Numbered from the stretch's first letter, positions 21,877 through 44,688 are shown. The stretch: DNA of 64,000 bases from Candidatus Acidiferrum sp. (GCA_035996445.1 DASYJM010000033.1:36890-100889), one strand, 5' to 3'. Notes: a model not told the origin generated them from the letters alone. A program made the numbers and translations.

Positions 21877-21932
21877 CCAACCGGCCGGGGGCTGGTACAC
21901 TTTTCAGTATGATGATGCGAAAAAGACACAAT

Positions 21933-22358
21933 ATGCGACGTTCCGTTCACATCCTCTATGCCTTCTTCCTATGGATACCGGTTATGTTCCTAGCCGCCCA
22001 ATCTATCGACGCGCCTTTGGTAGCGAGGTCAAATGAGCCTGTTAAGCCCCTCAAGACTTGGGTAGGGAACGCCAGCTGGTACGGGAACGATTTTGACGGT
22101 AAGAAGACGGCTAATGGCGAAGAGTTCGATTCTGAGGCCCTGACCGCAGCGCACCCGAACCTGCCGTTTGGATCTATCGTGCGCGTGGTAAACACTCGGA
22201 ACGGAAAGTTTGAAGTAGTACGAATCAATGACCGCGGCCCTTATCAAGAGGGACGCGAAATTGATGTATCCTATCGCGTGGCTAGAAAGATTGGCCTGAC
22301 CCATGCGGGAGTTATCAAGGTCAGACTCGAATTGATGCAGCTGCCTCAGCGGCCTTAA
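21933..22358 (+). CDS. rlpA: RlpA-family septal ring lytic transglycosylase (DPBB domain)
   Basis: Motifs ASWYG, TANGE, TAAHPNLPFG and VRINDRGP. Start taken as ATG 21933. Confidence 0.9.
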   Translation: MRRSVHILYAFFLWIPVMFLAAQSIDAPLVARSNEPVKPLKTWVGNASWYGNDFDGKKTANGEEFDSEALTAAHPNLPFGSIVRVVNTRNGKFEVVRINDRGPYQEGREIDVSYRVARKIGLTHAGVIKVRLELMQLPQRP

Positions 22359-22386
22359 CGAACCTCAGAAGGCCGGGTTCACAAAC

Positions 22387-23145: not shown

Positions 23146-23250
23146 TTCTCTCAACTGAATTCCTCGCGCTCGCAATTTCGCGGCGCCTTTCCTTGACCAC
23201 GATGCAAGCCGCCGATAAGCTTGAGTTTCTCCTTCCCGGTGAAAGGTTCA

Positions 23251-25224: not shown

Positions 25225-25263
25225 CGTCCGCCAGTTTGGCGAACTTCCGGGCTTGGAGTCCGC

Positions 25264-25977
25264 ATGTCGCAAAAAATTCCGCGCCGCATCTTTCTCGCTC
25301 TAGCCGGAGGCGCCCTCGGCTTCCCAAAACTCCCGTTGGGAGAGGTTGATCCGCCTACCGTGCTTGATCATATTCTTCTCGGCTGCAACGATCTCGACCG
25401 TGGCATCGCCTTCGTCGAGGAGCACACGGGTGTCCGCGCGGCCTTCGGTGGTGTTCATCCTGGCCGCGGGACCCGAAATGCGCTTCTCTCTCTTGGTGAA
25501 AGGCACTATCTCGAAATCATCGCGCCTGACCCACAGCAAGCCGGAGCGCCAGACACGCGCAATTTGCGGAAATTGGCCGAGCCGCGACTCCTAGGCTGGG
25601 CCGCGCATCCGGGCGACATCAGCCAATTTGCTGCTCACCTCCGCAGTGCTGGCATGGACTTCGAGGGCCCCACTCCCGGTTCCCGAAAGCGCCCCGATGG
25701 TCGCCTGCTTCAATGGAAAACCCTGAATCTGAAAAACGACGAGCAGGGCGTGCTGCCCTTTTTCATCGAATGGAGCGTCGGCACCATTCATCCCTCCGCA
25801 GACGCGCCCTTCGGTTGCAAAATCGAGCGCTTTACGATTTCCAGTCCTAATGAGGTTGCGCTGCACGGTCTCTGCTCTCTGCTTAGTCTTGATGTTCACG
25901 CGGAGCACGCTGAAAAGCCACGACTGTACGCCCGCATCTCCGGACCCAATGACCACATGATGCAACTCAAGTCTTGA
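25264..25977 (+). CDS. VOC/glyoxalase-like protein with twin-arginine-like N-terminus
   Basis: Motifs LDHILLGC, GGVHPGRGTRN, YLEIIAPD and PFFIEW. N-terminus PRRIFLAL. Confidence 0.85.
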   Translation: MSQKIPRRIFLALAGGALGFPKLPLGEVDPPTVLDHILLGCNDLDRGIAFVEEHTGVRAAFGGVHPGRGTRNALLSLGERHYLEIIAPDPQQAGAPDTRNLRKLAEPRLLGWAAHPGDISQFAAHLRSAGMDFEGPTPGSRKRPDGRLLQWKTLNLKNDEQGVLPFFIEWSVGTIHPSADAPFGCKIERFTISSPNEVALHGLCSLLSLDVHAEHAEKPRLYARISGPNDHMMQLKS

Positions 25978-26044
25978 TCAATCCCCGCCATTGGCCGCTA
26001 GCTGATGACCCTGCTTTCCGTCTTGTCCCACTACCGTAACCGCA

Positions 26045-26053
26045 TGCTATACT
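26045..26053 (+). promoter_or_regulatory. extended -10 promoter for infC-rpmI-rplT
   Basis: TGc-TATACT immediately before a long hairpin at 26057-26098. Confidence 0.55.
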
Positions 26054-26160
26054 TTGAAACCCATCCCATAGCGGTTTTGTACTGTGGGTAGCGGGTTTAA
26101 TTTTCGGCGTTGCGGGCTTCGGATGTACTCCGCAAGGGCCTTGTGGCATTAGGGGGAAAT

Positions 26161-26745
26161 ATCGCAGAACGTACTTTCCGGCAGAGCGACCGCATTCGCG
26201 TTAACGAACGTATTCGGGCGCGCGAAATCCGGGTGATTGATGAAGAAGGCGGCCAGCTCGGCGTCATGCAGCCTTTCGAAGCTATAAAAATGGCTAAGGA
26301 AAAGGGCTTGGACCTGGTGGAAATCTCTCCCACCGCGGACCCGCCGGTTTGCAAGATCACCGATTATGGCAAGTATCTGTACCAGGCCAACAAGAAAGCG
26401 CACGAACAGCGTAAGAGCAGTCGCGGCTCGCAACTTAAAGAGGTAAAGTTTCGTCCCGCTACCGCCGAACACGATTATCAGGTTCGCAAGAATCAGATCA
26501 TTCGGTTTCTCGGAGAAGGCCACAAAGTTCGTGCCATGATTTTTCATCGCGGCCGCGAAATGGCTCACCAGGAAGTCGGTCGCGCCAAGATGACCCGCTT
26601 GCTGGGCGAAATTGGCGAGAACGGCCAAGTGGAAACCATGCCGCGCATGGAAGGAAATGTTTTGGTGGCGTTGTTGGCGCCTAAAAAAGGCGTTCCGGCG
26701 AGCAAGCCCGCGGGTCAGCAGGCCAACGCCCAGCAGTCGCAGTAG
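26161..26745 (+). CDS. infC: translation initiation factor IF-3 (probable ATC start)
   Basis: Motifs RVNERIRAREIRVID, LDLVEISP, DYGKYLY and KEVKFRP. A purine-rich AGGGGGAA precedes ATC 26161 and there is no in-frame ATG before the conserved region. Confidence 0.93.
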   Translation: MAERTFRQSDRIRVNERIRAREIRVIDEEGGQLGVMQPFEAIKMAKEKGLDLVEISPTADPPVCKITDYGKYLYQANKKAHEQRKSSRGSQLKEVKFRPATAEHDYQVRKNQIIRFLGEGHKVRAMIFHRGREMAHQEVGRAKMTRLLGEIGENGQVETMPRMEGNVLVALLAPKKGVPASKPAGQQANAQQSQ

Positions 26746-26799
26746 CGCACGTCACAGCGCCAAAATAATGAACGAAGTTATTGCGAGAGGATTTTAGAG

Positions 26800-27021
26800 A
26801 TGCCAAGGAATCGTTCCAAGCCCAAAATGAAGTTGAAAACTCACCGGGGCGCTAAGAAACGCTTCAAGGTCACCGCCACGGGCAAGATTCTTCGCATGCA
26901 TTCTGGCAAGCGCCATTTGCTCGGTACCAAGAAACCCGGCCGCATGCGCAAGTTGAAGAAGCTCACGTTGGTGAGCCCCGCCGACAACAGAAATGTGAAG
27001 CTCTTGCTTCCGTACGCTTAG
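26800..27021 (+). CDS. rpmI: 50S ribosomal protein L35
   Basis: KLKTHRGAKKRFKVTATGK. Confidence 0.95.
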   Translation: MPRNRSKPKMKLKTHRGAKKRFKVTATGKILRMHSGKRHLLGTKKPGRMRKLKKLTLVSPADNRNVKLLLPYA

Positions 27022-27306
27022 AGTGAAGCTCGGCCAAAGACTTTCAGCCTCAATTTATCGAAGCTGATGCAGTAGCAACAAAAAGTCGGGCGCAAGCCCG
27101 CGCCGTTCCGCTGAAAAGCAAAATGGCATCGCGCCAGGCAGCGCTTCACGGGTGCCTGCCGGCCGATAACGAGCCGCATCCATTGTTCGCCTCGCGGTGA
27201 ACACACGCGGTTCCGCAGTTCTACCGGAGACAAACCCGTTGCCGTACGCGTGTTCCTACGTGTCTGCGCAGCCCGTTGTCTCCCATTTCATTAAGGAGAA
27301 ACCCAG
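27022..27306 (+). promoter_or_regulatory. structured 285-nt rpmI-rplT spacer, candidate L20 autoregulatory leader
   Basis: Several hairpins, plus an 8-bp stem GGAGACAA/TTGTCTCC closing just before the SD AAGGAG. Confidence 0.45.
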
Positions 27307-27690
27307 ATGGCACGCGTAAAACGCGGCACTAAACGCCGTGCGCGGCGTAAGAAATATCTCAAGCGCACGAAAGGTTTTTTTCTCACCAAGAGCAAGCTGT
27401 ACCAATCCGCGCAGGAAGCCGCGAATCGCGCCGATCGCTATGCATTCCGCGATCGCCGCGTGAAAAAACGGCAGTATCGACGATTGTGGATCCAGCGCAT
27501 CGGCGCCGCAGCGCGCTTGAACGGCATCACCTATGGGCAGCTTATCCATGGACTGAAAGCCGCCGGAGTGGATCTCGATCGCAAAATCCTGGCGGACATC
27601 GCCGTAAAAGATGCGGCCGCGTTCAAGTTGCTGGCTGAGCAGGCGAGAGCAGCCGCGCCACCCCAGAAGAAAAAGAAAACCGCCGCCTAA
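27307..27690 (+). CDS. rplT: 50S ribosomal protein L20
   Basis: [27 protein letters not shown] and DRKILAD. Confidence 0.97.
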
Positions 27691-27822
27691 CGTTTTTCTG
27701 CGCGCTGGCTATGTCGTCGGTTTCGTTCGGGCGCTAACGTTAGCACTCGAAGGGTGCCCCAGATTCGCAGTTGGTGTATGAAGCTGGGTGTTGGGGTTTC
27801 CGGCCTCAACTTGAGATCATTC

Positions 27823-28968
27823 ATGAATGCTGCCGAAAACATCACCGCGAAAAAACTCGCTGATCTCGGCGTTGCCGAACCGGATCAGCTTGCGCCTCTC
27901 TTCGCGCAAGCACGTTCGCGATTCGACGACGAATCGGCTCGCGTTCACGACGAAGAATCGTGGAAACTTTTCCGTGATGCCTGGTTAGGACGCAAGTCCG
28001 GCGTGCTCACACAAATCACCGACAACTGGCTGAAACCGGCTGGCCCTGCTCTGAAGCCCGCCGTAGGCGCGGCATTAAATCAATTGCGTGCGCACGTCGA
28101 ACCAAAAATTGAAGCGTTACACTCTTCAATCGATTCGGGTGGCGACGCATCCGCCAGCCCACGCGATCGTGCGGATCTTTCGCTTCCCGGAGTCGTTCGC
28201 GCTGTTGGCTCGCGCCATTTAATTCGCCAGGTCTTCCAGGAAATTGAAGACATTTTCTTTTCCATCGGGTTTTCCGTCGCCGAAGGCCCGGAAATCGAAA
28301 CGCCTTACTACAATTTCGAAGCGCTCAACATTCCAGAATTCCATCCGGTACGCGATGATATGGACACGTTCTATATCGACGTTCCGTCCTCCGCCGGGAA
28401 GCAATCCGCGCAAAGCCTGCTCTTGCGCACGCACACTTCTCCAGTGCAAATCCGCACTATGGAAAAAACCAAGCCTCCCGTGCGCGTAATCGTACCTGGT
28501 AAGGTTTATCGCCGGGACAATCCCGACGCCACTCATTCTTTCATGTTCCATCAGATCGAAGGCCTGGCCGTTGATTCCGACATTACTTTCTGCGATTTCA
28601 CCGGCACCATCGAATATTTCGTGAAGCAGTTCTTCGGTCCAGGGGTAAAAACGCGTTTCCGGCCCAGCTATTTTCCATTTACCGAACCGTCCGTGGAATT
28701 CGACGCTTCCTGCATCTTCTGCAATGGCACCGGCTCGAATTCCTCCGGCGCGACATGCTCGAAGTGCAAAGGCTCAGGCTGGATAGAACTCTTTGGCGCC
28801 GGCATGGTGGACCCCGCCGTCTATGGCTTTGTGAATTACGATGCTAAAAAAGTCAGCGGCTTTGCATTCGGCATCGGCATCGATAGGCTGGCCATGTTGA
28901 AGTACGGCATTGACGACATTCAGGTATTTTTTCAGAACGATGTGCGCTTCTTGCGACAATTTCCGTGA
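27823..28968 (+). CDS. pheS: phenylalanyl-tRNA synthetase alpha subunit
   Basis: Motifs LLLRTHTSPVQIR, HSFMFHQIEGL, FRPSYFPFTEP and GFAFGIGIDR. Start at ATG 27823. Confidence 0.97.
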   Translation: MNAAENITAKKLADLGVAEPDQLAPLFAQARSRFDDESARVHDEESWKLFRDAWLGRKSGVLTQITDNWLKPAGPALKPAVGAALNQLRAHVEPKIEALHSSIDSGGDASASPRDRADLSLPGVVRAVGSRHLIRQVFQEIEDIFFSIGFSVAEGPEIETPYYNFEALNIPEFHPVRDDMDTFYIDVPSSAGKQSAQSLLLRTHTSPVQIRTMEKTKPPVRVIVPGKVYRRDNPDATHSFMFHQIEGLAVDSDITFCDFTGTIEYFVKQFFGPGVKTRFRPSYFPFTEPSVEFDASCIFCNGTGSNSSGATCSKCKGSGWIELFGAGMVDPAVYGFVNYDAKKVSGFAFGIGIDRLAMLKYGIDDIQVFFQNDVRFLRQFP

Positions 28969-29771
28969 GTGAGGCTTCTCGCGCTGTGACGTTTGCTAAC
29001 GCTAAAAATCGCTTTTCAAATCGCGCAGCCGATTACTTGCGTTATCGTCCCCATTATCCCGAGGGTGTGCTCGAATTCCTTAGGTCGCAAAGTTATCTAT
29101 CTCCAGCGCACACCATCGCCGACATCGCTTCCGGCACGGGGTTTCTGTCCGAGCTGTTTTTAAAAAATGGTAATCAAGTTTTAGGCGTGGAGCCCAACCA
29201 GGAAATGCGACAGGCCGGCGAAGAATACCTTGCTGGCTATCCGGGCTTTACCAGCGTTAACGGGTCAGCAGAAGCCACCACGCTGCCGAATTCTTGCGCT
29301 GACTTCGTCACCGTAGGGCAAGCCTTTCATTGGTTCAAGCCGGAGCCGACCTATCGTGAATTTGCGCGCATCCTGCGCCCCCATGGATGGGTCGCCATTG
29401 TGTGGAACGACCGCACGCTCTCAGCAACGGGCTTTGCGGTGGGTTATGAAGAACTTCTGGTACGTTTTGGCACGGATTACTCTCGAGTAAGAGATTCTTA
29501 TCCTCAACCGAAAGACCTTCGCGCGTTTTTCGGCCACGAAAATTTCTTGACGCACGAGCTCCCCAATTTTCAGCAACTTGATCTCCAATCATTGCGTGGC
29601 CGTCTGCGCAGCAGTTCTTTCGTTCCGTCGGAGGGCCAGCCGAATTTCACGGAAATGATGGCCGCGCTCGATACCCTCTACGCCGCTCACCAGCACGATG
29701 GCCGTGTTGTCATGGAATTTTCTACCTGGGTACACGTGGGCCAATTGACCCCCGGAAGCAGCCGGTCATGA
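28965..29771 (+). CDS. class I SAM-dependent methyltransferase
   Basis: Motifs YRPHYP, IADIASGTG, GVEP and FVTVGQAFHWF. Overlaps both pheS and pheT by 4 nt. Confidence 0.88.
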   Translation: MSEASRAVTFANAKNRFSNRAADYLRYRPHYPEGVLEFLRSQSYLSPAHTIADIASGTGFLSELFLKNGNQVLGVEPNQEMRQAGEEYLAGYPGFTSVNGSAEATTLPNSCADFVTVGQAFHWFKPEPTYREFARILRPHGWVAIVWNDRTLSATGFAVGYEELLVRFGTDYSRVRDSYPQPKDLRAFFGHENFLTHELPNFQQLDLQSLRGRLRSSSFVPSEGQPNFTEMMAALDTLYAAHQHDGRVVMEFSTWVHVGQLTPGSSRS

Positions 29772-31879
29772 AGGTGCTGTACAGCTGGCTGCACGATTTC
29801 GTGGCCGCTAGTGCGTCACCAGAGGAATTAGCTTCGCGCCTCGCGCTCTCTGGAACCAACATCGGCGGAATTGAGAATGGTGCTCAGGGCGCCGTGCTCG
29901 ACGCCGAAGTCACTTCGAATCGCCCGGATTGCTTGAGCCATTACGGCATCGCGCGCGAAGTCGGCGCAATTTACAAACTGCCGCTCAAGCAGGTTTTGCC
30001 GAAGCCATCCGAATCCTCTGCTAAAACCGCAGAAGCGATAAAAGTAGAAATCCGCTCGCCGGAGTTATGCGGACGCTTCACCGCGCGCCTAATCCGCGGC
30101 GTGAAAATTCAGCCTTCTCCAGCGTGGCTTAAAAACAGGCTCGAAGCTTGCGGCCTTGCCAGCATCAACAACATCGTCGACGTTTCCAACTACGTCATGT
30201 TGGAGCTTGGCCATCCGCTTCATACTTTCGACTACGACAAAATACGCGACCACTCTATCGTCGTGCGCGGCGTGAATCCGCGCTCCTCCAGCGCACCTAA
30301 TGCCGCTGGCGAAAAAATTAAAACTCTTGATGGCGTCGAGCGCCAACTCGATTCCGCCACCTGTGTGATCTGCGACGGCGACGGCTCGCGCATCGTGGGT
30401 ATTGGCGGCATCATGGGCGGCGCGGAAACCGAAATTTCCTTTTCCACCAAGAATGTATTGATTGAGTGCGCCTGGTTCGATCCCATCGCCATTCGCCGCG
30501 CCACTCGTTCACTCAAACTCCACACCGAAGCTTCGACTCGTTTCGGGCGCGGCGCCGATCCAGAAATGGCCGAGCTGGCTTCGCGCCGATGCGCCGAATT
30601 GATTTTGCAACTGGCGGGCGGCGAATTACTTGGCGGAGTCGTGGATGTGTATCCCGGAAAGCGTCCGCCCAAAAAGCTCCAGGTCACCCGCGCCGAACTT
30701 CTTCGTGTGATGGGCGCCGACGTTCCCGACAAGGAAACCGAATCCATCCTGGGTGCCTTGGGCTTCGCTCCTGTGCGCGTTGATCAAAATCGCGGCACCG
30801 CCGGCTCTATCCTGGCCACCTGGGAATGTACGCAACCTTCCTGGCGCGCCGACGTTTCACGCGAGATTGATCTAATCGAGGAAATTGTCCGCGTCTACGG
30901 GCTCGATAAATTTCCGCCGCGCTTGCCTGCGTCGCGACAAGGTGCGGCGCGCTTGCTGCATTACGAAGCTGAAATGCGTTTGCGCGAACGGCTGATCGGC
31001 CTGGGCTACTGCGAAATTGTTACCATCCCGCACGTCGCCGAAGAACGCGACGCGCTGTTCCGGCCCGCTGATGTCAGTCCCGCGCGCCTCGCCAATCCAC
31101 TCTCCGAGGAAGCTGGCGTCTTGCGATCCACCGGTACCGTCGCCATGGCCGGTGCGCTCGAATGGAATTTGAATCATGGCCAGCGCAACGTGCGCCTGTT
31201 CGAAATCGGCCATCACTATCGCTTAAACGGCAGTAAGCCCGTTGAGACTCGTGTGCTCACACTCGGCGCAACAGGCGCCGCTCGCGACAAAAACCTGTAT
31301 GAACCCGCTCGCGATTATTCTTTCGCCGATTTAAAGGGCGACCTCGATAATATTGGCGCGGTGGCCGGCGGCTTGCGCTGGGAAGAAAACGCCACAGAAT
31401 TTTTGAATCCCGCGCGTCGTGGGGCGCTTTTCCTGAAGGCTGAATCGCTCGGCGTTGCCGGCCAACTTTCCCGCCGCGTTGCCGAACGCCTCAAATTTCG
31501 CCAGGACGTTTTCCTCGCGGAAATAAATCTCGGCCCATTCTATTGCTCCTTTTACGGAGTCAAAAATTCGCGCCGGTATCAGCCGATCCCGCGTTTTCCC
31601 GCTGTCGAGCGCGATTTCTCCCTGCTGTTTTCTGACCGCACGCACTTCTCCGATGTGGTCAAAGCCATTTCGTCGCTGAATATTCCAGAAATCGCTTCCA
31701 TCGAGGCCGCCGATTTATTCCGCGGCAAAAATGTCCCCGCGGGGAAATATTCACTTTTGGTTAGAATTGCGCTGCAACCCCGCTCTGCAACTCTGACAGA
31801 CCCGCAAATCAATGAAATTTCCGCACGTATCGTCGCCGCGCTGGAAAAAGAACTCGGCGCCCAGTTGCGCACCGCCTAA
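29768..31879 (+). CDS. pheT: phenylalanyl-tRNA synthetase beta subunit (short, no B2 domain)
   Basis: Motifs EVTSNRPDCLS, NNIVDVSNY, GIMGG, PSWRADV and FPAVERDFS. 703 aa. Confidence 0.95.
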   Translation: MKVLYSWLHDFVAASASPEELASRLALSGTNIGGIENGAQGAVLDAEVTSNRPDCLSHYGIAREVGAIYKLPLKQVLPKPSESSAKTAEAIKVEIRSPELCGRFTARLIRGVKIQPSPAWLKNRLEACGLASINNIVDVSNYVMLELGHPLHTFDYDKIRDHSIVVRGVNPRSSSAPNAAGEKIKTLDGVERQLDSATCVICDGDGSRIVGIGGIMGGAETEISFSTKNVLIECAWFDPIAIRRATRSLKLHTEASTRFGRGADPEMAELASRRCAELILQLAGGELLGGVVDVYPGKRPPKKLQVTRAELLRVMGADVPDKETESILGALGFAPVRVDQNRGTAGSILATWECTQPSWRADVSREIDLIEEIVRVYGLDKFPPRLPASRQGAARLLHYEAEMRLRERLIGLGYCEIVTIPHVAEERDALFRPADVSPARLANPLSEEAGVLRSTGTVAMAGALEWNLNHGQRNVRLFEIGHHYRLNGSKPVETRVLTLGATGAARDKNLYEPARDYSFADLKGDLDNIGAVAGGLRWEENATEFLNPARRGALFLKAESLGVAGQLSRRVAERLKFRQDVFLAEINLGPFYCSFYGVKNSRRYQPIPRFPAVERDFSLLFSDRTHFSDVVKAISSLNIPEIASIEAADLFRGKNVPAGKYSLLVRIALQPRSATLTDPQINEISARIVAALEKELGAQLRTA

Positions 31880-35658: not shown

Positions 35659-38298
35659 TTAAAAGTGGAAGCCGAGCTCCACGGTTTCGCTGCGCGGCGT
35701 CACAAAGTGTGTGCCGCTGAACGTTGAAAGGAAGTTATAAAGCGCAGTCTTATTTGTGAGGTTGACGACGGTGAAGCGTAGACTCCACTTGTAACGGTCA
35801 CCGCGAAACAGATTGTCGTCGCCGACGCTGACGTCAAACAGGTGCCGGGGCTTGACGCGATCGGGATTGTGGTCGTTGTTTTCCTGGCTCGGGAAGGTGT
35901 CATACCCACCTTGCGGCAGGTTTATGAGTTTCGATGTAACTCGCCCCTCACTTCCGTCGGAATTTATGCAGTCGGTTAGGGGACTGCTGAATGTCGCAAA
36001 AACTCCATTACATGCTAAGCCAATGGTCACCTGCTGGTTGGGAGTCAGAGCGAGTGCTGCACCGGCATCCGGCACGCCACTCACAACCAGTCCACTGTCG
36101 TAACGCCAGTTGAACGCAATCCACGGCAGGGTCTTCCAGGGTTGATATTGCAGATGCGTTGTTTGTTGGAAGGCTTGGTCGTGGTCAATTCGAAACGGAT
36201 CCCCGCCAGTTACAGTAGCTCCCAAACCTCCGACTAGTGGTGGAAAGAAGCGGGCGTTGACGTGGCCGAGAACGGCAAAAGCGGTAAACCCGTGAAAGTT
36301 AGGTACGCTTACGCGGATGGATGCGCCGTCGAGTTTCGAGTTATGCCAAGCAATCGGGAAGGTGATTGGTGTGCCCCCAAAGATGCTAAAATCATAGCCG
36401 TTGCGCGTGTATTTCCACATGTAGTCGGCATCCACAACCAGATATTTTCCGAAGGCCTGCTCAAAGCCCGCATTGAACTGGTTTCGCTGGCCCGGACGAA
36501 TGGGTGCAAAAGGCTGCGTGCCTCCCAGATTAAAGACATCATTAATCACCGGGATCGTGGACCCCTCGCTCGCGAGTACCAGGTTCTCGTTGAAAGGCGT
36601 TTCCTGAATACGCGCGTACGAAGCCCGAAGAACGGTGTTCGTCTTCTTGACATTGTAGGCGACGCCCACGCGGGGCTCCGGCTGCGTGTCGTGAACGATT
36701 CCGCGGTACAAGTCCGCTCGAAATCCTACGTTGAAGGCCCAGTTGCCCTTGTTGATCGTGTCTTGAATATAGAAGGCAATCTCCTTGATGTCTGTGCGGC
36801 CTCGGAAGGGAAACAGGCCAACACCCGCGTGCGGATGCGAGAGATCAAAGGGAAACAGATCCGTGCAGGGTGCGTCGATGGGTTGATTCGTTACCGTGTC
36901 GAAGCACGGAGCGCCAGCCACATCTGTCAGGGACGGAAGGAACGTAGGATCGGTGATCCCGAAGTTGAAATTCTCCCTCAGGAAAGTATGCTGAAACGTA
37001 ACGCCAGCCTTGATGTTATTGATCCCCTTCACGTAGGAGATGTCTGACCGTAAGCCGGCATTGGTGAGCGTTCTGTTTTGATTGACGGTGGCTGGGAGAT
37101 CCGCGAAAACGTTGGTGCTCGGGAAATAGTCGTACCCGTCATGACGGACGAAAGCTCCCAAGGTAAACAGTGTGGTGGTGCTAATCAAGTGTGTCCATAC
37201 CGGGGCGACATTGTAGGTGTTGATTAACGAACGCTGGTCGACCGGACCTACCAGCGCTCCGGTGGGGTCGGTAACTCCAACGTTGAGATTATCTAGGCTG
37301 TTCGGTGTCTGAAACCACGAACGCGTATATCCGGCATTGACGTGGATCGTGTCCGCACTGCTAATGTTATAGTCCACTCGATCAAACAGATTCTCCTGGT
37401 TGCCTTTATCATGGATGGCCTGAAATTCCGGAGGATCCAGGAACCGGCCCGTCCTCAGTCCGTTTGCTGCGACAAAGTTGCCCCATTTCTTGCCCCCGAA
37501 CGCGACATCGAACCCGATGTTCCCGGTGCCAAACGATCCATACGACGCCCTGACACTTCCCACCGGAGTTGTTTGTCCCAAACCTGAACGGGTGGTCACT
37601 TTGATGATCAAGCTCGTTTTGTCACCGAATTCCGCCGGCGGCGCGCCGGAAATTACTTCCAGCGATTGGATGGACTCCACTGGAATCTGGTTGGAAAAGA
37701 CCTTGCTCTGTTGATCGGTAATAGGTTGCCCGTCTACAGAAAACGAATTCTCCGCATGATCCCCGAGCCCATGAAATAAGCCGTTCGAGTCCGCCACTAC
37801 GCCTGGCGTAGCCAGCGTTACCAACGAACTAACCGAGGAAGATGGACTTTCAAGCGGAAGCTTGTCGAACAGCCCGCGGTCGACGTCGGTGTGGAAGCTG
37901 GGATCGTTCTCCACCAAGTCCCCACCCGTGGCCTCGACGGTAACCGTCGTCGCCGATGAACCCATCTTCAATCCAAACTGCACGTTTACGGGAACGGCCG
38001 AACGTACGTCTACATCTTGGGTGTATGGTTCGAATCCTGGCGCATTTACGACCGCGTGATAGGTGTTAAATGGCACGTTCGTGAACCGAAAAGTCCCATC
38101 ACTTTGTGTGGTGGTCGTGCGTTGAAAGCCGCTCACGCCATAAGAAATTTCCACCGTTGCATTGGCAACCGCCGCCCCCGATGGATCTTTTACTACTCCT
38201 TCCACGGAGCCGGCATTACCCAACTGCGCGAAACTGGGAAGCGCGCTAAATAAGAAGCCAAGGCTCAAAACGAAAAATGCAAACTTTCTAAAATTCAT
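35659..38298 (-). CDS. TonB-dependent receptor with N-terminal carboxypeptidase-regulatory-like domain
   Basis: Signal peptide, GSVEGVVKDPSGAAV, plug motif HGLGDHAENSFSVDGQPITD, and a beta-barrel ending in F. SD GAGGAG. Confidence 0.92.
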   Translation of the reverse strand: MNFRKFAFFVLSLGFLFSALPSFAQLGNAGSVEGVVKDPSGAAVANATVEISYGVSGFQRTTTTQSDGTFRFTNVPFNTYHAVVNAPGFEPYTQDVDVRSAVPVNVQFGLKMGSSATTVTVEATGGDLVENDPSFHTDVDRGLFDKLPLESPSSSVSSLVTLATPGVVADSNGLFHGLGDHAENSFSVDGQPITDQQSKVFSNQIPVESIQSLEVISGAPPAEFGDKTSLIIKVTTRSGLGQTTPVGSVRASYGSFGTGNIGFDVAFGGKKWGNFVAANGLRTGRFLDPPEFQAIHDKGNQENLFDRVDYNISSADTIHVNAGYTRSWFQTPNSLDNLNVGVTDPTGALVGPVDQRSLINTYNVAPVWTHLISTTTLFTLGAFVRHDGYDYFPSTNVFADLPATVNQNRTLTNAGLRSDISYVKGINNIKAGVTFQHTFLRENFNFGITDPTFLPSLTDVAGAPCFDTVTNQPIDAPCTDLFPFDLSHPHAGVGLFPFRGRTDIKEIAFYIQDTINKGNWAFNVGFRADLYRGIVHDTQPEPRVGVAYNVKKTNTVLRASYARIQETPFNENLVLASEGSTIPVINDVFNLGGTQPFAPIRPGQRNQFNAGFEQAFGKYLVVDADYMWKYTRNGYDFSIFGGTPITFPIAWHNSKLDGASIRVSVPNFHGFTAFAVLGHVNARFFPPLVGGLGATVTGGDPFRIDHDQAFQQTTHLQYQPWKTLPWIAFNWRYDSGLVVSGVPDAGAALALTPNQQVTIGLACNGVFATFSSPLTDCINSDGSEGRVTSKLINLPQGGYDTFPSQENNDHNPDRVKPRHLFDVSVGDDNLFRGDRYKWSLRFTVVNLTNKTALYNFLSTFSGTHFVTPRSETVELGFHF

Positions 38299-38420
38299 TT
38301 GAATTCTCCTCGGCCCTCAGGCGGGCCATCTCTGTATGTGTAGATGACGGGAATAACGCGGTGGCCATCAAATTTTATGGCTAGCGTTAGTCGAGAAACT
38401 AATTGGAGTGAATAGCGTGC

Positions 38421-38714
38421 TTAAGCGATTGGAGGTGCGCGGGAGGGAGAATCGTGACTGAAGAGATCTTTATTAAACTGTACGGCGATTTCGTGGACAC
38501 AACCGGTCGTTAAAAGAGGCGCGGCCAACAATAACGCACTGACGCCCCGCGCTGCGCCCAAGTGCGCGGCGTGGCAAACCCGGCAGGCGGCCTCGTTTTG
38601 CCCGTTTTCGTGGTCGTGAATTACGACCTGTATCAGGAACACGACGATGCAGCAGGCAGTCGCAAGCGCCAAAGTTCGGGCGAAATAATTTACGGATTTT
38701 GAGGTGTGCCGCAT
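38421..38714 (-). CDS. DUF2946-like leader protein (TM, HDHE, CRVCH, C-terminal RAPP)
   Basis: 97 aa from ATG 38714. Ends ...SHDSPSRAPPIA. Lies 122 nt upstream of the TonB receptor. Confidence 0.8.
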   Translation of the reverse strand: MRHTSKSVNYFARTLALATACCIVVFLIQVVIHDHENGQNEAACRVCHAAHLGAARGVSALLLAAPLLTTGCVHEIAVQFNKDLFSHDSPSRAPPIA

Positions 38715-38756
38715 GCTTTTAAACTTCAATACTTATTGTACTCGCAATATTCGCGA

Positions 38757-39623
38757 CTAAAGTTCGGGTCGCGACGAAGTTGCTCCTTCAAGGTACCGGG
38801 GGTTGCGCCCATGGTGCAGAATCAGGTGTAAGAAAAACATGAGTATCAAAACTCCACCAAAGGTCACCACAATTGTAGCGCCTGTCGGGGTATCAATCTT
38901 AACACTCAAGATGACCCCTAACGCCGATACTAGTGTACCCATTGTCCACCCTATGGCCAGCCGCGGTCCAATGCGGTCAGCAAAAAGCATCGCTCCCACG
39001 CTGGGAACGATCAGGTAACAAAACACTAGCAGAACACCCGCAATGGCGACCGAGGAAGTAACCACAAATCCGAACGAAGCATAAAAAAGAAAATCCCAGA
39101 ACCTCACGTTGAAGTTAAGTTTTTCGGCGTTATCGTGATGCATGGAAATTTGCAAAAACTTTTTGCGGAAAATGTAGTGAAATATTCCGACCGCACCGTA
39201 CAAAATTGCCGTCTTGCGAACTTCCGCCCAAGACACCGCCAGTATGTTTCCCACCAGCATGTCCTTCAAATGCTCAGTTTCGCCGGTAGCTTTGCTCATC
39301 AGCAGGATTGCCGTAGCCGAGGCCACCGCGTAGGCGATACCGATGAACGCTTCCTGGGGAATATGTCCACGCCTGGTCCTCGCCATTGCAAAAATGGCCG
39401 CGCCCAAAAACGTGAAACCCAGGCTGATCCAATAAGACCCGCGTCCATGCGGATCCATTCCCACCACAATTGCCACGGTCGCTCCCAGCGCTGCGATTTG
39501 GGCTAGCGCGAGGTCCACGAAGATAACTCCCCGTTCCACCACATGTACCCCAAGGTACGCGTGGATGCCGGTCAGAATCAGGCTCGCCACGAACGGCGCG
39601 AGCAAAAACGGAAGAATCTCCAT
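38757..39623 (-). CDS. metal ABC transporter permease (ZnuB/MntB, ABC-3 family)
   Basis: Motifs GVHVVERGVIFVDLALAQ, LVGNILAV and VFCYLIVP. About 8-9 TM segments. Confidence 0.9.
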   Translation of the reverse strand: MEILPFLLAPFVASLILTGIHAYLGVHVVERGVIFVDLALAQIAALGATVAIVVGMDPHGRGSYWISLGFTFLGAAIFAMARTRRGHIPQEAFIGIAYAVASATAILLMSKATGETEHLKDMLVGNILAVSWAEVRKTAILYGAVGIFHYIFRKKFLQISMHHDNAEKLNFNVRFWDFLFYASFGFVVTSSVAIAGVLLVFCYLIVPSVGAMLFADRIGPRLAIGWTMGTLVSALGVILSVKIDTPTGATIVVTFGGVLILMFFLHLILHHGRNPRYLEGATSSRPEL

Positions 39624-39641
39624 CGAATTGGGCTCCTGGTG

Positions 39642-40625
39642 CTAGTGGGTGGTGTCGAACGCTTGTTTTAATTTGGCGATATCGTAGTCAAACAATTTGA
39701 AGTAATCGGTAACTTCCTTTTCGCCGCCGACCGACGGCAGCAACACGACTACTTGCCCGCCGGTCTCCCGGGCCACGGAATTGGGAGTTTTCAAATCGAA
39801 GTACGGTTCCACTACGATCACTTTCACGTTGTCCCGCCTCATTTGTCCAATCAAGTCCACGGTGTGCTGCGGGGTAGGCGGAATGCCCGGGCGCGGTTCC
39901 ACGTAGCCCACGACGTTCAGTTGAAAATGTTCGGCAAAATTCGGCCATGAGCGGTGATAGGTCACAATCTTCCGTCCGGCGTACGGTTTCATCTCGGCTT
40001 TCCATTTCTCATCGGCCTGCTTCAACCGCTGTTCGAAATCGCTATACCGTTGCGCAAAATAAGCCGAATCATTCGGACGCATTTCACTCAGCTTGTCCGC
40101 GATGCCCTTTGCGACGCGCAATCCATTCTCGGGATCGAGCCAGTAGTGCGGGTTACCTTGCGGATGCACATCGCCTTCGGCTCTGGTCACCTGCCCAGTC
40201 GGAATCTCCAGAATCTTCGCAAAGCGCGAAGCGTCCAGATAACCTGGCGCGGATACTTGAATATTCGGATTGCTGGATTGCGTGATTAGCGGCGGCAACC
40301 ATCCAATCTCCAACTCAAGTCCCACTACGATCAGCAAATCTGCCTTGCGCAGCTTCAGCAGGAAGCTGGGCTTGGCCTCCACAAAGTGCGGGTCCTGATA
40401 TCCCTTGGCGATGGATTCAACATCCACTTTGTCGCCGCCCACTTCCTGTGCCAGTGAGGCCAGGTCGGTGGTCGCCGTGATGATTTTCAGCTTGTTCTCC
40501 GCACGCCCTGCCGGACTTCCCGCCAATGCACACACCAATACGATTGCCATCGCCACGGCGGTGCTTTTCGTGAAGTAATTCGTGACGTAAAATATCATTC
40601 TCTCGATCAGCCGTACCTGTGACAT
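39642..40625 (-). CDS. metal ABC substrate-binding protein (ZnuA/TroA, cluster A-I)
   Basis: Motifs QDPHF, GNPHYWLDP and TYHRSW. SD AAGGAGA precedes ATG 40625. Confidence 0.92.
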   Translation of the reverse strand: MSQVRLIERMIFYVTNYFTKSTAVAMAIVLVCALAGSPAGRAENKLKIITATTDLASLAQEVGGDKVDVESIAKGYQDPHFVEAKPSFLLKLRKADLLIVVGLELEIGWLPPLITQSSNPNIQVSAPGYLDASRFAKILEIPTGQVTRAEGDVHPQGNPHYWLDPENGLRVAKGIADKLSEMRPNDSAYFAQRYSDFEQRLKQADEKWKAEMKPYAGRKIVTYHRSWPNFAEHFQLNVVGYVEPRPGIPPTPQHTVDLIGQMRRDNVKVIVVEPYFDLKTPNSVARETGGQVVVLLPSVGGEKEVTDYFKLFDYDIAKLKQAFDTTH

Positions 40626-40645
40626 GCCAGTCTCCTTGTTCACCA

Positions 40646-42043
40646 TCAAAAGGGGTGAGCGCCATGCGCGCCCATCACGAATAAAAACTGGAACAATAGC
40701 TCGTTGGCATTGTCAAAACTTGCGTTGGGAGCCGTCGCCAGGTGGCCGTACCTATATTGTCCCCGTATTTGGCTGAACTCGCTTGGCCAATAGGTAACAA
40801 TCGCCGACAGGCCCGTATCAATCAGATTCGCATTGCGTGCATGTGCGCTGCGGTCGAACCGGCCCCCAACCGTCCAGCGCCGGTTCACGCGGTACTCCGC
40901 GGAGGAGTACGTTCCGAAAGCGTGCACTGATTGGGAAAGGTCCAACGGCGAAATCTGGTCGCGCAAACTGTAAAACAATTCTGTGCGGAATATAAATGAC
41001 TTGTAAATCGCGCGGCGCAGCGGCTTCCACCGCAGCGTAGCGTCGGCTCCATACAGGCTGGTGATGAAAGGCGAGCCGACGTCATTGTGGCCTCGCGCGT
41101 ACGAAACGCCCAAATCCAGGTTGGTGGATTCACTTAAGTCCTTGTAGCCCCGAAGGTGTCCCACCACGCTAACGTCTTGCCGCTCGTTAGCGGTGAAAAC
41201 ATCCCCGGAATCGCCGCGAAATACTTGTCCGGTGGCTTCTAGGAACCAACCCTTTGGCGCCGGCAAGATGCGCGACAACGAAAATCCGGCGTCGTCAATG
41301 CCATCTTCGCCGCCAAGCAGATTATTCGTCGCCAATGGCCGGTCTATGAACGGCAACGCGTGGTTGTGAATGGTATTGATCTTGCCGAAAGCGGCTCGCA
41401 TTTTTCCGACCTTCAAGAGCAGCCCGGCGGGCAACGACGTAAACGTCACATACCCTTCTTCCACGTTCACCCCTTGCTCGCCAAACGAGATAAATACGTC
41501 CGCGCGCGCATAGGGATCGATAATCGCTTGTACCCCCAACTCCGACTCATGCAACTCCAGTGACGGAGACGGAGTCACGTCGTTGTGACCGACTGCGCCG
41601 ATAAAGTCGCCGATCAAGCTGATGTCGGGATTTAGCAACCTGGCATTCCCGCTGGCGCCGCCAAAAGTCTGGGTCTGCGTTGACTGTAGCGCTTGAGCTT
41701 GGGGAGTAGGTGCAGCCAGAGCCGCGGCAGGCATCGTGGCAACGTTCGTTACGCTTGACGACTCCGCGATTACTGGCCGGGGAGCTGGTGCAGATGCAGA
41801 TGTCAGCACCAGTCGCGCTGCTGCCTCTTCACTAGGGGCCTTCGCGTCCGCCAGGACCTTCAGTTGATCGCGCAGCAGGGCCACTTGCTCGGCCAGCATG
41901 CTCACCTGTTGTTCTAGCGTTTGTATGCGCGCCTCAGAATTGGCAGTGGACTTTTCGCCTGAAGAGCCGTTTGTTGGGACTCCCTGGGCCTTGGCGCAAA
42001 CAGCTACAAATAGCAGAGCGCATAACACGGAGGTCTTTTTCAT
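40646..42043 (-). CDS. outer-membrane beta-barrel with N-terminal coiled coil (metal-uptake associated)
   Basis: Signal peptide, heptad segment, NPDISLIGDF, IHNHALPF and C-terminal GAHGAHPF. SD GGGAGA precedes ATG 42043. Confidence 0.82.
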   Translation of the reverse strand: MKKTSVLCALLFVAVCAKAQGVPTNGSSGEKSTANSEARIQTLEQQVSMLAEQVALLRDQLKVLADAKAPSEEAAARLVLTSASAPAPRPVIAESSSVTNVATMPAAALAAPTPQAQALQSTQTQTFGGASGNARLLNPDISLIGDFIGAVGHNDVTPSPSLELHESELGVQAIIDPYARADVFISFGEQGVNVEEGYVTFTSLPAGLLLKVGKMRAAFGKINTIHNHALPFIDRPLATNNLLGGEDGIDDAGFSLSRILPAPKGWFLEATGQVFRGDSGDVFTANERQDVSVVGHLRGYKDLSESTNLDLGVSYARGHNDVGSPFITSLYGADATLRWKPLRRAIYKSFIFRTELFYSLRDQISPLDLSQSVHAFGTYSSAEYRVNRRWTVGGRFDRSAHARNANLIDTGLSAIVTYWPSEFSQIRGQYRYGHLATAPNASFDNANELLFQFLFVMGAHGAHPF

Positions 42044-42100
42044 AAACACTTCTCCCAAATGCAAAAATTTTCCTACGTCACCAGGAGATACTAGAGGGGG

Positions 42101-42385
42101 CTAGCAAAAACTAACAGCAGGGGGTGCGCGCGGTGAAACGGCGTGGGGAATATCTGGGGATGTTGCCGCCGGAACCGGAAAGGTCTCCAGCTGATTGATG
42201 ACCGTCGTGAAAGCGAGACTGGGGGAGCTTGGCGTGACGACTGATCCGGCCGCCGAGCAGAGCGGGCAAACGTGAGAGTCCGAAGGTGCCGCGCTTAGGT
42301 CTCCACAATAGTGAAACTGCGCCCCCAGAAATATGACTGCCAGGAGCAAAGTTAGAATGTGAATTTTCCGGACATCCCCAGACAT
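42101..42385 (-). CDS. DUF2946-like leader protein (TM, CPLC, C-terminal RAPP)
   Basis: 94 aa from ATG 42385. Ends ...AVSPRAPPAVSFC. Lies 57 nt upstream of the barrel gene. Confidence 0.8.
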   Translation of the reverse strand: MSGDVRKIHILTLLLAVIFLGAQFHYCGDLSAAPSDSHVCPLCSAAGSVVTPSSPSLAFTTVINQLETFPVPAATSPDIPHAVSPRAPPAVSFC

Positions 42386-42401
42386 GTGCTTTGTAAGACG
42401 G

Positions 42402-42430
42402 AGCTTAGGCCGGAATGGTTGCGGGGTCAA
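42402..42430 (-). promoter_or_regulatory. sigma-70-type promoter of the metal-uptake operon
   Basis: Minus-strand TTGACC-N17-TAAGCT. Confidence 0.6.
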
Positions 42431-42465
42431 GCAGCGAAACAATAGGATTGCCAAGCTCTAAATAG

Positions 42466-44076
42466 CTATTTCATAGCTTCCAGATTGACTTTAACTTCTT
42501 TTAACTCAGGCCGGTCGGCTCCAGCGTCCACTATTTTCAGCAGTTGCATGTAGTAATCTCGTGCAGAGCGGATGTCGCCCGCCGCCTGGCTTGCTTGCGC
42601 GGCGCCCAGCAAAGCGTCAAACCGGTTGGGCGCCTCGGCCAAAACCACCTTATAAGCCACCATCGCATCGTGCGGCTTCTTTAACTCCATCATTAAATCC
42701 CCTAACATCTCGCGAGCCGGCATGGTGGTAGACTCGAGGCCTTTGGCATCTTCTCGGTCAGCCGCGGATCGTAGTAAATCTATGGCTTTAGCGGAATTTC
42801 CCTCAGCATACGCCAGCCAGGCCTCCGCTTCGCGCAGGTCGGTAGCTTTCTCCGTGGAAACATCATAGCCCGTAGCTTTACTCTCTCCTTCGCGGTACAA
42901 CACGGCTTCCGCCAATTTGCTTACATCATCTTTGGCTGTCGCCACATCACCGCTTCGTGCCGCTCCTATCGCCTTCGCCCAGTAAATGATGTCCCGGGAG
43001 TTTCTTCGCTCCGGAACCGACAGTGCCGCAGCCTCCTTCCATCGGTGCAGCTCGATCGCATTACGCGCGTCCACCGTGGCCCGGTGATCGGCTTTTTCTC
43101 CCTCGCCAGAACCGGGCACGGTCATCTCTTCCGCCGACAACGCGCGCGCCTGGGCTTCCTGTCCACTTTGCAAATAAGCGTAATCCAGGAAGTCCATGGC
43201 ATGGGTTTGGTAATGTGCCTCGGCTTGATGCATTTCCGAAGCATGCGCTGCTGCCGCTGTGGCCGCTATGTTCGATGCAATCGATTCCTGCCACAACCCC
43301 AGCCTCGTAAAAATGTGCGACGGCATATGCAGAGCGTGCGAGGAATCCGGCGCGATCTTCGCGTAAGCGCGCGCCGCGGCAAGCCCTTCACTCGCAAACT
43401 GCGGTTTGTCCGTGGCGTGAATCAGGTAATGCGCTACACCAGGATTGCCGGGATGCTTCTGGAAGAGCGGTTCTAGTATCGCCATCGCTTTTTTGCGATT
43501 GGCCGTGTCATCGACGTCTTCATCCGCCAAAGCCACCAGCGACAAGGCATAAAACGCGCTGGCCTCCACGTCGCCCGGCGCGCCCGAATGTAATTGCGCT
43601 AAGGCTTCCGAGTACGCGGTAGTCCGCTGCACGTGAGAAAGCTTCTCGTCGTTCTGATAAAACGCGGCGGCCGCGGCAATATATCCGCGTTCACGCGGGG
43701 TGGGGGCGCTGAGTTTCTGCGCCTTTTCCACGCTCTCTAAACCTTCTTTAAGCGTTCGCTTCCCTGGAAAATCCCACAACTGGTGATAAAGCGCCATGGC
43801 CGCGCCCCAGTGTGCTATCGCACAATGCGTGTCCAGGTCCGCGCCCGCCTTGAACGCACTCTCCGATTCCCGATACTGAAACGAATGCAACAGCGCCAGC
43901 CCCTTCAGTAACGCCGGTTGCGCTTCCGCTTTGCAGCTATTGGGGAAATCCACGTGGCCAAGTTGCTCGGAAGTTGTTTCAGGAGAGTGCTTCGCGGTGG
44001 CGAAAAAGTAACTTAAGGGCAGTCCTAGACACAGTGACGTCGCAAGGAAAAGGTTGATCACGATGCTCATGCGCAT
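42466..44076 (-). CDS. secreted TPR/helical-repeat protein, unknown function
   Basis: Signal peptide, TPR-like helices and His motifs HYLIHA, SHALHMPSHIF and HYQTHAMD. Confidence 0.85.
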   Translation of the reverse strand: MRMSIVINLFLATSLCLGLPLSYFFATAKHSPETTSEQLGHVDFPNSCKAEAQPALLKGLALLHSFQYRESESAFKAGADLDTHCAIAHWGAAMALYHQLWDFPGKRTLKEGLESVEKAQKLSAPTPRERGYIAAAAAFYQNDEKLSHVQRTTAYSEALAQLHSGAPGDVEASAFYALSLVALADEDVDDTANRKKAMAILEPLFQKHPGNPGVAHYLIHATDKPQFASEGLAAARAYAKIAPDSSHALHMPSHIFTRLGLWQESIASNIAATAAAAHASEMHQAEAHYQTHAMDFLDYAYLQSGQEAQARALSAEEMTVPGSGEGEKADHRATVDARNAIELHRWKEAAALSVPERRNSRDIIYWAKAIGAARSGDVATAKDDVSKLAEAVLYREGESKATGYDVSTEKATDLREAEAWLAYAEGNSAKAIDLLRSAADREDAKGLESTTMPAREMLGDLMMELKKPHDAMVAYKVVLAEAPNRFDALLGAAQASQAAGDIRSARDYYMQLLKIVDAGADRPELKEVKVNLEAMK

Positions 44077-44340: not shown

Positions 44341-44688
44341 TCAGAGGCCCAACTTCCTTGAAACGGACTCCGCCCAGCCTTCGACCTTCCCATGGCCATC
44401 CTGTTAGAATACTTACTGGAGCGGTTCTTCGAAGCAGGTGAGGGAGCGAAAGCTGTTTGAACCAATGACGAATCTCTGAGGCGCTGCGGACAGACAGCCT
44501 GTGTGCACGGCCTGTCCCGCTGGCTGGTCAACGCGTCAATCGCAAGACGACCCGCGAGCGGGGCAGGAAAGCCTAACGGTTGGCTCGTGGTGCCCACCTA
44601 ATTCAGAGGTTCACGGCCTAGCTCCCCACGGCCTAGCAGTCCGCTCTATTTTTTTGCCCGCGTGATTGTCCGGCTCCCAAAACCAATG

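Follow-up and report, generated by a model that had tools for sequence, protein, structure and literature searches.

The window considered here is a stretch of 64,000 nucleotides of Candidatus Acidiferrum sp. (GCA_035996445.1 DASYJM010000033.1:36890-100889). Its positions 35,659 to 42,430 hold a locus of metal-transport type with all of its genes on the minus strand, among them two small open reading frames (ORFs) that we call leader A and leader B. Each codes for a peptide with a hydrophobic N-terminus, a His/Cys motif and the sequence Arg-Ala-Pro-Pro (RAPP) close to its end, and both are probably leader peptides that act in cis on the genes behind them. The features of the locus, read along the minus strand, are:

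42386..42431, minus strand: promoter-like block of leader A, CTTGACCCCGCAACCATTCCGGCCTAAGCTCCGTCTTAC..., conserved in relatives
42385-42101, minus strand: leader A, 94 amino acids from its ATG
42043-40646, minus strand: barrel-like protein, 465 amino acids
40649-39642, minus strand: ZnuA-type binding protein (PF01297, E 1.3e-57)
39623-38757, minus strand: ABC-3 permease (PF00950, E 6e-32)
38715..38800, minus strand: upstream block of leader B, ..GAAGGAGCAACTTCGTCGCGACCCGAACTTTAGTCGCGAATATTGCGAGTACAATAAGTATTGAAGTTTAAAAGC, homologous in loci without the cassette
38714-38421, minus strand: leader B, 97 amino acids from its ATG
38299..38420, minus strand: spacer between leader B and the receptor gene, 122 nt
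38298-35659, minus strand: TonB-type receptor (PF13620, i.e., CarboxypepD_reg, and Plug)

The three genes between the leaders will be referred to as the cassette. The gene order agrees with the initial annotation of this DNA, which had placed one leader before the block of barrel, binding protein and permease and another before the TonB receptor.

Leader A has a basic N-terminus and a hydrophobic segment and reads MSGDVRKIHILTLLLAVIFLGAQFHYC..SHVCPLC. Its motif FHYC..SHVCPLC is followed by a spacer of 42 amino acids, by SPRAPP and by the tail AVSFC, so that the peptide ends in RAPPAVSFC (RAPP codons at 42130-42119, minus strand). Leader B reads ..TLALATACCIVVFLIQVVIHDH..CRVCHAAH. Here a transmembrane (TM) helix precedes HDH..CRVCHAAH, 44 amino acids lie between CRVC and the final RAPPIA, and the end is made up of DSPSRAPP, the tail IA and the stop (RAPP codons at 38441-38430, minus strand). 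In both peptides 14-19 hydrophobic residues come after basic ones. The AlphaFold model of leader B has a helix over residues 5-38, with a predicted local distance difference test (pLDDT) value of at least 90 over about residues 11-30; the region between CxxC and RAPP is weakly conserved and modelled with low confidence. Two dissimilar ORFs of about 95 amino acids with a common architecture (hydrophobic N-terminus, His/CxxC motif, spacer, RAPP) had already been described in the initial annotation, with RAPP at 42119-42130 and 38430-38441. The coordinates match exactly, the lengths are those given above, and the families are indeed dissimilar: hhalign aligns A and B colinearly, at a probability of 1.8% and E 0.027.

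Homologues from public metagenomes and metagenome-assembled genomes (MAGs) formed 80 clusters for leader B and 83 for leader A. RAPP is kept in 76/80 and 80/83 of them, respectively (156/163 together). It is followed by a tail of two residues in 74/76 relatives of leader B and 78/80 of leader A (152/156), and the distance from CxxC to RAPP is 44 residues in 75/76 of the former and 42 in 80/80 of the latter. Invariant in family A are H25, C27, H38, C40, P41 and C43 (FHxC..HxCPxC), in family B H35, C44, C47 and H51, with H33 and H48 nearly so (HxH..CRVCHAAH). A loss of RAPP and CxxC in orthologues had been named beforehand as one of the observations that would speak against leader peptides; RAPP persists in the 156 clusters, and the CxxC cysteines are invariant. 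The ratio of non-synonymous to synonymous polymorphism (pN/pS) amounts to 0.31 for leader B and 0.41 for leader A and stays below 1 along the whole peptide, and the R, A, P and P positions show a single amino acid each, written with 3-4 codon types. Because of these ratios and of the synonymous variation of the RAPP codons, selection must be acting on the peptide, not on the RNA. Chance ORFs are ruled out by the conservation and by pN/pS. The count of such ORFs is non-significant by itself: in the 64-kb window, stop-to-stop ORFs of at least 50 amino acids that end in R[AG]PP not more than 8 residues from the stop number two, leaders A and B, against a random expectation of 0.83.

The tail of leader A is peculiar. 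It has five residues here (AVSFC, 42101-42118) versus two in the 78 relatives mentioned: where these read GTT-TAG, the window has GTT-AGT-TTT-TGC-TAG, a T shifted within a run of T having removed the usual TAG. Since a soil metagenome contig (L007) is identical to the window, the longer tail is not an error peculiar to the window copy.

The anatomy recalls a described family. DUF2946, to which CruR belongs, is defined by a CXXC motif, by RAPP three residues from the end and by a spacing of 45 residues between the two that is conserved within 1-2 residues; more than 95% of its members carry an export signal, and they stand first in operons that in many cases include a TonB receptor (PMC9426467). 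For CruR, RAPP-dependent arrest has been seen by toeprinting (PMC12992588). At our locus CXXC takes the form CPLC (leader A) or CRVC (leader B), RAPP lies near the C-terminus of both, and an N-terminal export signal or TM segment is evident in both from residue composition, in leader B also from the AlphaFold helix. Leader A always comes first in its operon, leader B does so in the loci without the cassette, and the spacing of 44 in leader B lies inside the published 45 ± 2. DUF2946 (PF11162; Pfam gathering score 23.7 bits) is also the sole Pfam family matched consistently, by 27/30 members of family B and 25/31 members of family A at E ≤ 1, and the best members of family B score 23.8 (P0077, which reaches the gathering score), 23.3 and 23.1 bits. 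The alignments of the window leaders extend from CxxC to the last position of the profile. When a profile of family B was compared with 1.84 billion representative proteins, only 117 clusters were found, all with the same plan: TM segment, HxH, about 8 residues, CxxC, 44 residues, RAPP and a short tail (spacing of 44 in 84/99). Leaders A and B thus appear as twilight-zone relatives of DUF2946, divergent and sub-threshold, not as formal members of the Pfam family.

Relatives of leader A occur at 141 places in species-representative genomes, and their carriers are nearly all Acidobacteriota MAGs (Candidatus Acidoferrum/Acidiferrales, "gp2", Terriglobia). About 137 loci were classified by blastx, with the window proteins and a Czc cassette as references. 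They reveal a recombination hot spot between a tetratricopeptide repeat (TPR) gene and a DinB-family gene, which is occupied in different ways:

leader B and receptor only: 28 loci
leader A, barrel, ZnuA, permease, leader B, receptor (the order of the window): 16 loci
leader A-OEP-CzcB-CzcA, then leader B: 4 loci, 3 of them reaching the receptor
leader A-OEP-CzcB-CzcA beside a divergent receptor: 33 loci
leader A-barrel-ZnuA-permease beside a divergent receptor: 6 loci

Leader A always heads a cassette, and the pairs of leader A with its cassette and of leader B with its receptor occur independently of each other. Leader A heads a CzcCBA-type efflux cassette more often than an uptake-like one (50 versus 29 loci), which means that the control of import assumed in the initial annotation is not specific to it. 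Among A-type leaders, identity over the last 80 residues reaches 90% between some that stand before barrel-ZnuA-ABC3 and others that stand before OEP-CzcB-CzcA (L084 versus L125). In three loci (L088, L093, L130) the barrel gene lies behind an OEP-type spacer with remnants of an OEP start, and a further one (L129) has the order leader-OEP-barrel-ZnuA-ABC3-receptor. To judge from gene order, cassettes are exchanged behind one regulatory module.

The divergent receptor has a leader, too. A third subfamily, overlooked by blastx with leader B, precedes 41/41 of the divergent receptor orthologues (L004, L063-L137, minus strand); it reads ..LLYFAAGGSLLHQHTxGPExACHICQSLH.., then 44 amino acids, and ends in ..LHRA[S/G]RAPPSA and the stop. 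A leader is present at every orthologous receptor examined. The gene orders are best read as follows: leader B and its receptor would be the ancestral residents of the site, and a unit of promoter, leader A and cassette would have been inserted upstream of them. The tandem cascade of the initial annotation, for which synteny had been proposed as a check, finds no support in this comparison, as the loci display two autonomous modules, each with its own upstream block.

The first gene behind leader A, separated from it by a gap of 57 nt with the Shine-Dalgarno sequence GGGAGAAG, codes for the barrel-like protein. Secreted, with a coiled coil at the N-terminus and a beta-rich C-terminal part that ends in ..HPF, it is probably a porin-like barrel of the outer membrane. 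It belongs to no Pfam family; a weak match is that to the LbtU siderophore porin family (E 0.0011), and its relatives, at least 7994, are all without names. The AlphaFold model, of low confidence (pLDDT 42.7), contains a helix over residues 32-68 and some 13 strands. The stop of the barrel gene and the start of the binding-protein gene overlap (ATGA, 40646-40649), which suggests translational coupling; in some relatives they are about 20-100 nt apart.

The best NCBIfam match of the binding protein is AztC, which is of the zinc type. Its alignment with PsaA pairs the metal ligands with DPH, NPH, YHRS (His for Glu205) and EPYFD (Asp). PsaA is of the manganese type (two His, Glu, Asp); His/His/His/Asp is the zinc-preferring set of TroA, AztC and ZnuA. 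By this alignment, the ligand set of the binding protein is of the zinc type, and the His ligands assumed in the initial annotation are borne out. An ATP-binding cassette (ABC) ATPase gene is absent from the window cassette, from about 30 related barrel-ZnuA-permease cassettes and from the other window ORFs scanned. The components of the cluster A-I importers ZnuABC and TroABCD are encoded together, and the cassette departs from them because it has ZnuA and ABC-3 without the ATPase. In the alternative cassette, CzcA carries DFGIIIDGTIVMVEN in TM4, the heavy-metal resistance-nodulation-division (RND) signature (HME) for divalent cations. Because of the zinc-type ligands and the CzcA signature, a link of leader A with divalent metals of the zinc group is more probable than one with copper(I).

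The receptor matches PF13620, at its N-terminus, with E 3.4e-18 and Plug with 25.6 bits (cut-off 23.9). TonB-dependent receptors combine a Plug domain with a barrel of 22 strands. The window protein has no match to a barrel-domain model; its relatives have matches to OMP_b-brl_4. Its closest solved structures are YncD/PqqU (E 0.002), and sequence searches of solved structures identified neither the barrel protein nor the substrate of the receptor.

A prominent characteristic of both modules is the conserved block in front of the leader. In that of leader A, 17 nt separate TTGACC (42430-42425) from TAAGCT (42407-42402), whose end lies 16 nt upstream of the ATG. Its consensus CTTGACCCCGCAACCATTCCnGCCTAAGCTyCGTCTTA is near-invariant and at a fixed distance in 66/70 unique loci (L004-L137), whatever the upstream gene or the downstream cassette, a conservation far beyond that of ordinary promoters. 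The block can be read as a promoter of the sigma-70 or of the extracytoplasmic function (ECF) type (AAC..N17..CGTCT) and may include an operator. Transcription of leader A would start at this block; as the leader start has no Shine-Dalgarno sequence, the 5' untranslated region is probably very short. The block of leader B, a putative promoter, contains the direct repeat TTGCGA-ATA-TTGCGA and a -10-like TACAAT (38740-38735). In the window it fills the gap of 42 nt and reaches ~40 nt back into the 3' end of the permease ORF, so that the C-terminal tail of the permease apparently stems from DNA at the insertion junction that was once intergenic. The initial annotation had found no Zur/Fur palindrome, and none is seen; the conserved promoter-like blocks had gone unnoted.

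A promoter and terminator scan of the locus yielded nothing above shuffled expectation and no intrinsic terminator. The strongest terminator-like hairpin of the locus (38989-39011, minus strand), a 10-bp stem followed by GCTTTTTGCT, sits inside the permease ORF. Contigs from soil metatranscriptomes cover the 3' end of the permease gene, leader B, the spacer and the beginning of the receptor gene; being assembled contigs, they show transcription and cannot show attenuation. In run X22 the contig depth, a poor measure of expression, is highest over 38700-39282. Since a terminator is missing and an RNA contig crosses the junction, read-through from the cassette into the leader B unit is possible.

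We favour the view, with a probability of about 0.7, that both small ORFs encode leader peptides that act in cis and are of the DUF2946 (CruR/CutF) class, and that the locus has two leaders, not one cascade. The leader would be translated from the promoter-proximal start without Shine-Dalgarno sequence, and its N-terminal hydrophobic helix would engage the membrane; at the time of arrest this helix would lie 60-80 residues back and possibly be already inserted. The His/CxxC cluster would then be 44-47 residues back, just past the exit tunnel, and the rigid spacing of CxxC and RAPP would follow from the cluster just clearing the tunnel at arrest. Metal bound to the cluster would alter either the conformation of the nascent chain or the force acting on it, and thereby the duration of the arrest. 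We commit ourselves to the prediction that arrest keeps downstream expression on. The arrested ribosome could do so by blocking the loading of Rho on the C-rich 3' leader RNA, as in CruR, or, alternatively, by freeing the Shine-Dalgarno sequence of the next gene, as in CutF and SecM. For a receptor and an uptake cassette the most economical logic would be that of CruR: metal is bound, the arrest is released and the genes are turned off.

The RNA between leader and next gene has features that may bear on the read-out. In the spacer behind leader B, a hairpin AACGCUAGCCAU..AUGGCCACCGCGUU, a stretch rich in C and poor in G and a GGCCC-N6-GGGCC hairpin are followed by the Shine-Dalgarno sequence GAGGAGAA; the spacer measures 116-146 nt in 45 relatives, and the 3' 100 nt of the leader B ORF have a C content of 0.34 and a G content of 0.21. 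A small GC hairpin abuts the Shine-Dalgarno sequence of the receptor gene in most of these relatives, and also that of the OEP gene, with differing stem sequences. The Shine-Dalgarno sequence of the receptor gene is largely paired in the prediction (probability of being unpaired 0.15), to 58% with the UCUCCUUCC codons directly 5' of RAPP, and these codons fall inside the footprint of a stalled ribosome. That UCUCCUUCC is kept as an anti-Shine-Dalgarno sequence is ruled out as the main selection, for the codons vary synonymously and the amino acids are fixed. The spacer alignment of leader B is devoid of clean covariation, single-sequence folds of the window spacers are no stabler than shuffles (z +0.17 and -1.38), and the window-type spacer of leader A (57-72 nt) has no supported structure, the pairing partners of its Shine-Dalgarno sequence being diffuse. 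A search of Rfam detected no riboswitch or other known RNA in the locus. A read-out of the Rho type is somewhat more likely than an unmasking of the Shine-Dalgarno sequence, and the CutF-type read-out is not claimed because the modelled footprint brings little gain at leader B and none at leader A.

Several points weigh against leader peptides of this class. The ribosome arrest of both leaders is predicted from the motif. The window leaders score 13.4 (A) and 13.0 (B) bits against DUF2946, below the gathering score; of the hidden Markov model comparison suggested in the initial annotation, the family-wide matches stand, while the two peptides themselves, at about 13 bits, miss the cut-off. The spacing of 42 in leader A is one residue outside the published range, yet fixed in all relatives. 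With a stalled ribosome modelled in place, the unpaired probability of the Shine-Dalgarno sequence behind leader B rises from 0.15 to 0.24 only, and there is no consistent effect on its accessibility behind leader A. RNAalifold found almost no supported consensus structure in 45 leader B and 13 leader A spacers, in alignments that mix clades with shifted registers. Further, leaders of up to 90% identity, at some loci with the same spacer behind them, precede uptake-like as well as efflux cassettes; uptake and efflux of one metal ought to be regulated in opposite ways, and one metal-off logic does not suit the two alike.

The A-type leader, together with its near-invariant promoter and at some loci the same spacer, might instead be a portable sensor for divalent metals of the zinc group that is placed before uptake-like or CzcCBA efflux cassettes alike. 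The sign of the switch would then be set outside the peptide and the spacer, or the ATPase-less trio would represent a new way of trans-envelope metal handling. In the latter case, barrel, ZnuA and ABC-3 would form no conventional importer and would be induced under the same condition as efflux. The idea is doubtful; it is kept open by the leaders shared between uptake and efflux and by the ATPase missing from the cassettes.

Other alternatives concern the arrangement and the nature of the leaders. The locus could be one operon with two sequential checkpoints, transcribed from leader A through the receptor, in which leader B is an internal gate for another metal or threshold. The tandem order A-barrel-ZnuA-permease-B-receptor recurs in several species (at least the 16 loci listed above), only 42 nt without a terminator-like site separate the permease stop from leader B, one metatranscriptome contig covers the permease 3' end together with leader B, and the two leaders differ in their ligand motifs. 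However, leader B and receptor stand alone at the same site in at least 28 loci, leader A cassettes also occur without leader B or beside the divergent receptor with its own leader, and leader B retains the upstream block of the cassette-free type, now partly within the permease ORF. Read-through would, moreover, supplement and not supplant the local control by each leader, and we consider a two-checkpoint operon unlikely.

That the small ORFs code for stable, trans-acting, membrane-anchored metal-binding proteins (a sensor, a chaperone or a transporter accessory; cf. CzcI), with RAPP as a structural element or slow tail, is rather improbable. The confident TM helix, the conserved His/Cys ligands and a pN/pS below 1 over the whole peptide would suit such a protein, and CutF-like proteins that lack the proline motif (CzcI) have been proposed as regulators (PMC9973294). 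Yet proteomes strongly avoid RAPP outside arrest peptides (PMC12992588), and the fixed distances from RAPP to the stop (2) and from CxxC to RAPP (42/44), found in ~95% of members, fit the geometry of the tunnel better than a folded domain; nor does a poorly conserved CxxC-RAPP region modelled with low confidence look like one. CruR and CutF themselves act in cis only and are undetectable as proteins (PMC9426467, PMC9973294). Very improbable, finally, is a leader that monitors membrane insertion, secretion or thiol oxidation (Sec/YidC/Dsb) via its CxxC and adapts transporter synthesis to the status of the envelope. Classical RAPP arrest peptides do watch Sec/YidC, upstream ORFs with RAPP also precede DsbA and thioredoxin genes (PMC12992588), and the membrane-targeting N-terminal helix and the conserved cysteines would be in place. 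The genes downstream, however, are all of metal-transport types (ZnuA, ABC-3, CzcCBA, TonB receptor), with no Sec, YidC or Dsb gene among them, invariant histidines occur together with the cysteines, and the nearest characterised relatives respond to copper.

The comparison with these relatives shows common features and differences. CruR (Bp2923) of Bordetella pertussis is likewise small and exported and has CXXC, followed at a fixed distance by RAPP shortly before the stop (PMC9426467, PMC12992588). The next gene is, here as there, that of a TonB-dependent receptor, reached after a long spacer (162 nt in CruR, 116-146 nt behind leader B), the leader RNA is rich in C toward its 3' end, as is the cruR rut region, and a CruR-type logic, in which metal releases the arrest and the genes go off, fits a metal-uptake receptor. 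CruR differs in its host, one of the Proteobacteria versus Acidobacteriota here, in its length (145 versus 94-97 amino acids), in its tail (3 versus 2, or 5, residues) and in its spacing (45 versus 44 or 42). The present leaders have extra conserved histidines (HxH..CxxCHxxH), and the receptor is fused to CarboxypepD_reg and comes without a PepSY_TM partner. CutF of Rhodobacter capsulatus shares with them the membrane-targeted nascent peptide, the Cys/His site, the C-terminal proline stalling motif and the action in cis on the next gene (PMC9973294; bioRxiv 10.1101/2025.02.05.636593). The commonest neighbours of CutF-like genes are RND efflux genes (OEP, CzcB/CusB, ACR_tran), then TonB-like ones (PMC9973294), and these are the contexts of the A-type and B-type leaders. 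The stem-loop masking the ribosome-binding site in CutF has a possible counterpart at leader B, whereas no sequestering structure is supported for leader A. In contrast to the logic favoured here, CutF governs a multicopper oxidase, and metal induces the stalling that turns its genes on; its motif is proline-rich, not strictly RAPP, and elongation factor P matters.

ApdA, ApdP and SecM are small membrane-targeted peptides as well, with R-A-P-P close to the C-terminus and the regulated gene downstream (PMC7897499, PMC10951233). They watch, however, the Sec/YidC machinery encoded downstream, and translocation force releases their arrest, whereas the metal-transport cargo and the His/Cys cluster at a fixed distance found here point to a ligand-modulated arrest. 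With ZnuABC, AztABCD and TroABCD the cassette has in common a ZnuA-fold binding protein with His/His/His/Asp ligands and an ABC-3 permease. Unlike these, ~30 cassettes of the present kind have no ATPase gene, a porin-like outer-membrane protein opens the cassette, and control is apparently exerted by a leader peptide, with no visible Zur box.

The wider setting of the locus comprises the following genes:

44076-42466, minus strand: TPR-like secreted protein, 536 amino acids, without strong family match
20938-21876: dihydroorotate dehydrogenase
22387-23145: orotidine monophosphate decarboxylase
23221-25224: threonyl-tRNA synthetase
26110-26745: translation initiation factor IF-3
27754-28968: phenylalanyl-tRNA synthetase alpha
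29768-31879: probable phenylalanyl-tRNA synthetase beta (synteny with L001)

Because of the housekeeping genes around it (20938-31879), the locus is taken to lie on the chromosome and on no obvious mobile element. The TPR-like gene (42466-44076) lies directly upstream of the leader or leaders in most related loci, in all architectures; its product may be part of the system or a mere marker of the hot spot. Between this gene and an alpha/beta-hydrolase gene the plus strand (44421-44645) matches 6S RNA (RF00013) over the full length of the model, below threshold (35.8 versus 46.4 bits, E 1.9e-4).

According to PMC12992588, RAPP-ending upstream ORFs before TonB receptors are universal among Gram-negative bacteria. 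CutF-like genes that precede RND efflux or TonB-like genes have been catalogued, mainly in Pseudomonadota and Bacteroidota (PMC9973294), and DUF2946 genes are annotated upstream of czrCBA in Caulobacter (PMC4176598). In the literature that could be searched, no paper was found on zinc-linked or Acidobacteriota CruR-like leaders and no report of a ZnuA/ABC-3 cargo, a near-invariant promoter block or an exchange of cassettes behind one leader.

The leaders thus probably belong to a known class and introduce no new principle; the cascade that had seemed exceptional lacks support. Homology and anatomy lend good support to the family assignment and to the general mechanism, both of which are predictions. 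Metal-sensing arrest peptides are a recently recognised form of regulation without a protein regulator, so far characterised for copper only and in two Proteobacteria only. Read as proposed, the locus extends the class to soil Acidobacteriota, in families too divergent for the Pfam model, and ties it to zinc-type cargo, i.e., to ZnuA-type uptake and Czc-type efflux cassettes. It also shows whole transporter cassettes swapped behind one leader. If confirmed, these leaders would provide a natural test set for the effect of a ligand on the length of RAPP arrest and for the sign of the output, and they would account for the missing Zur/Fur-type operators at such loci.

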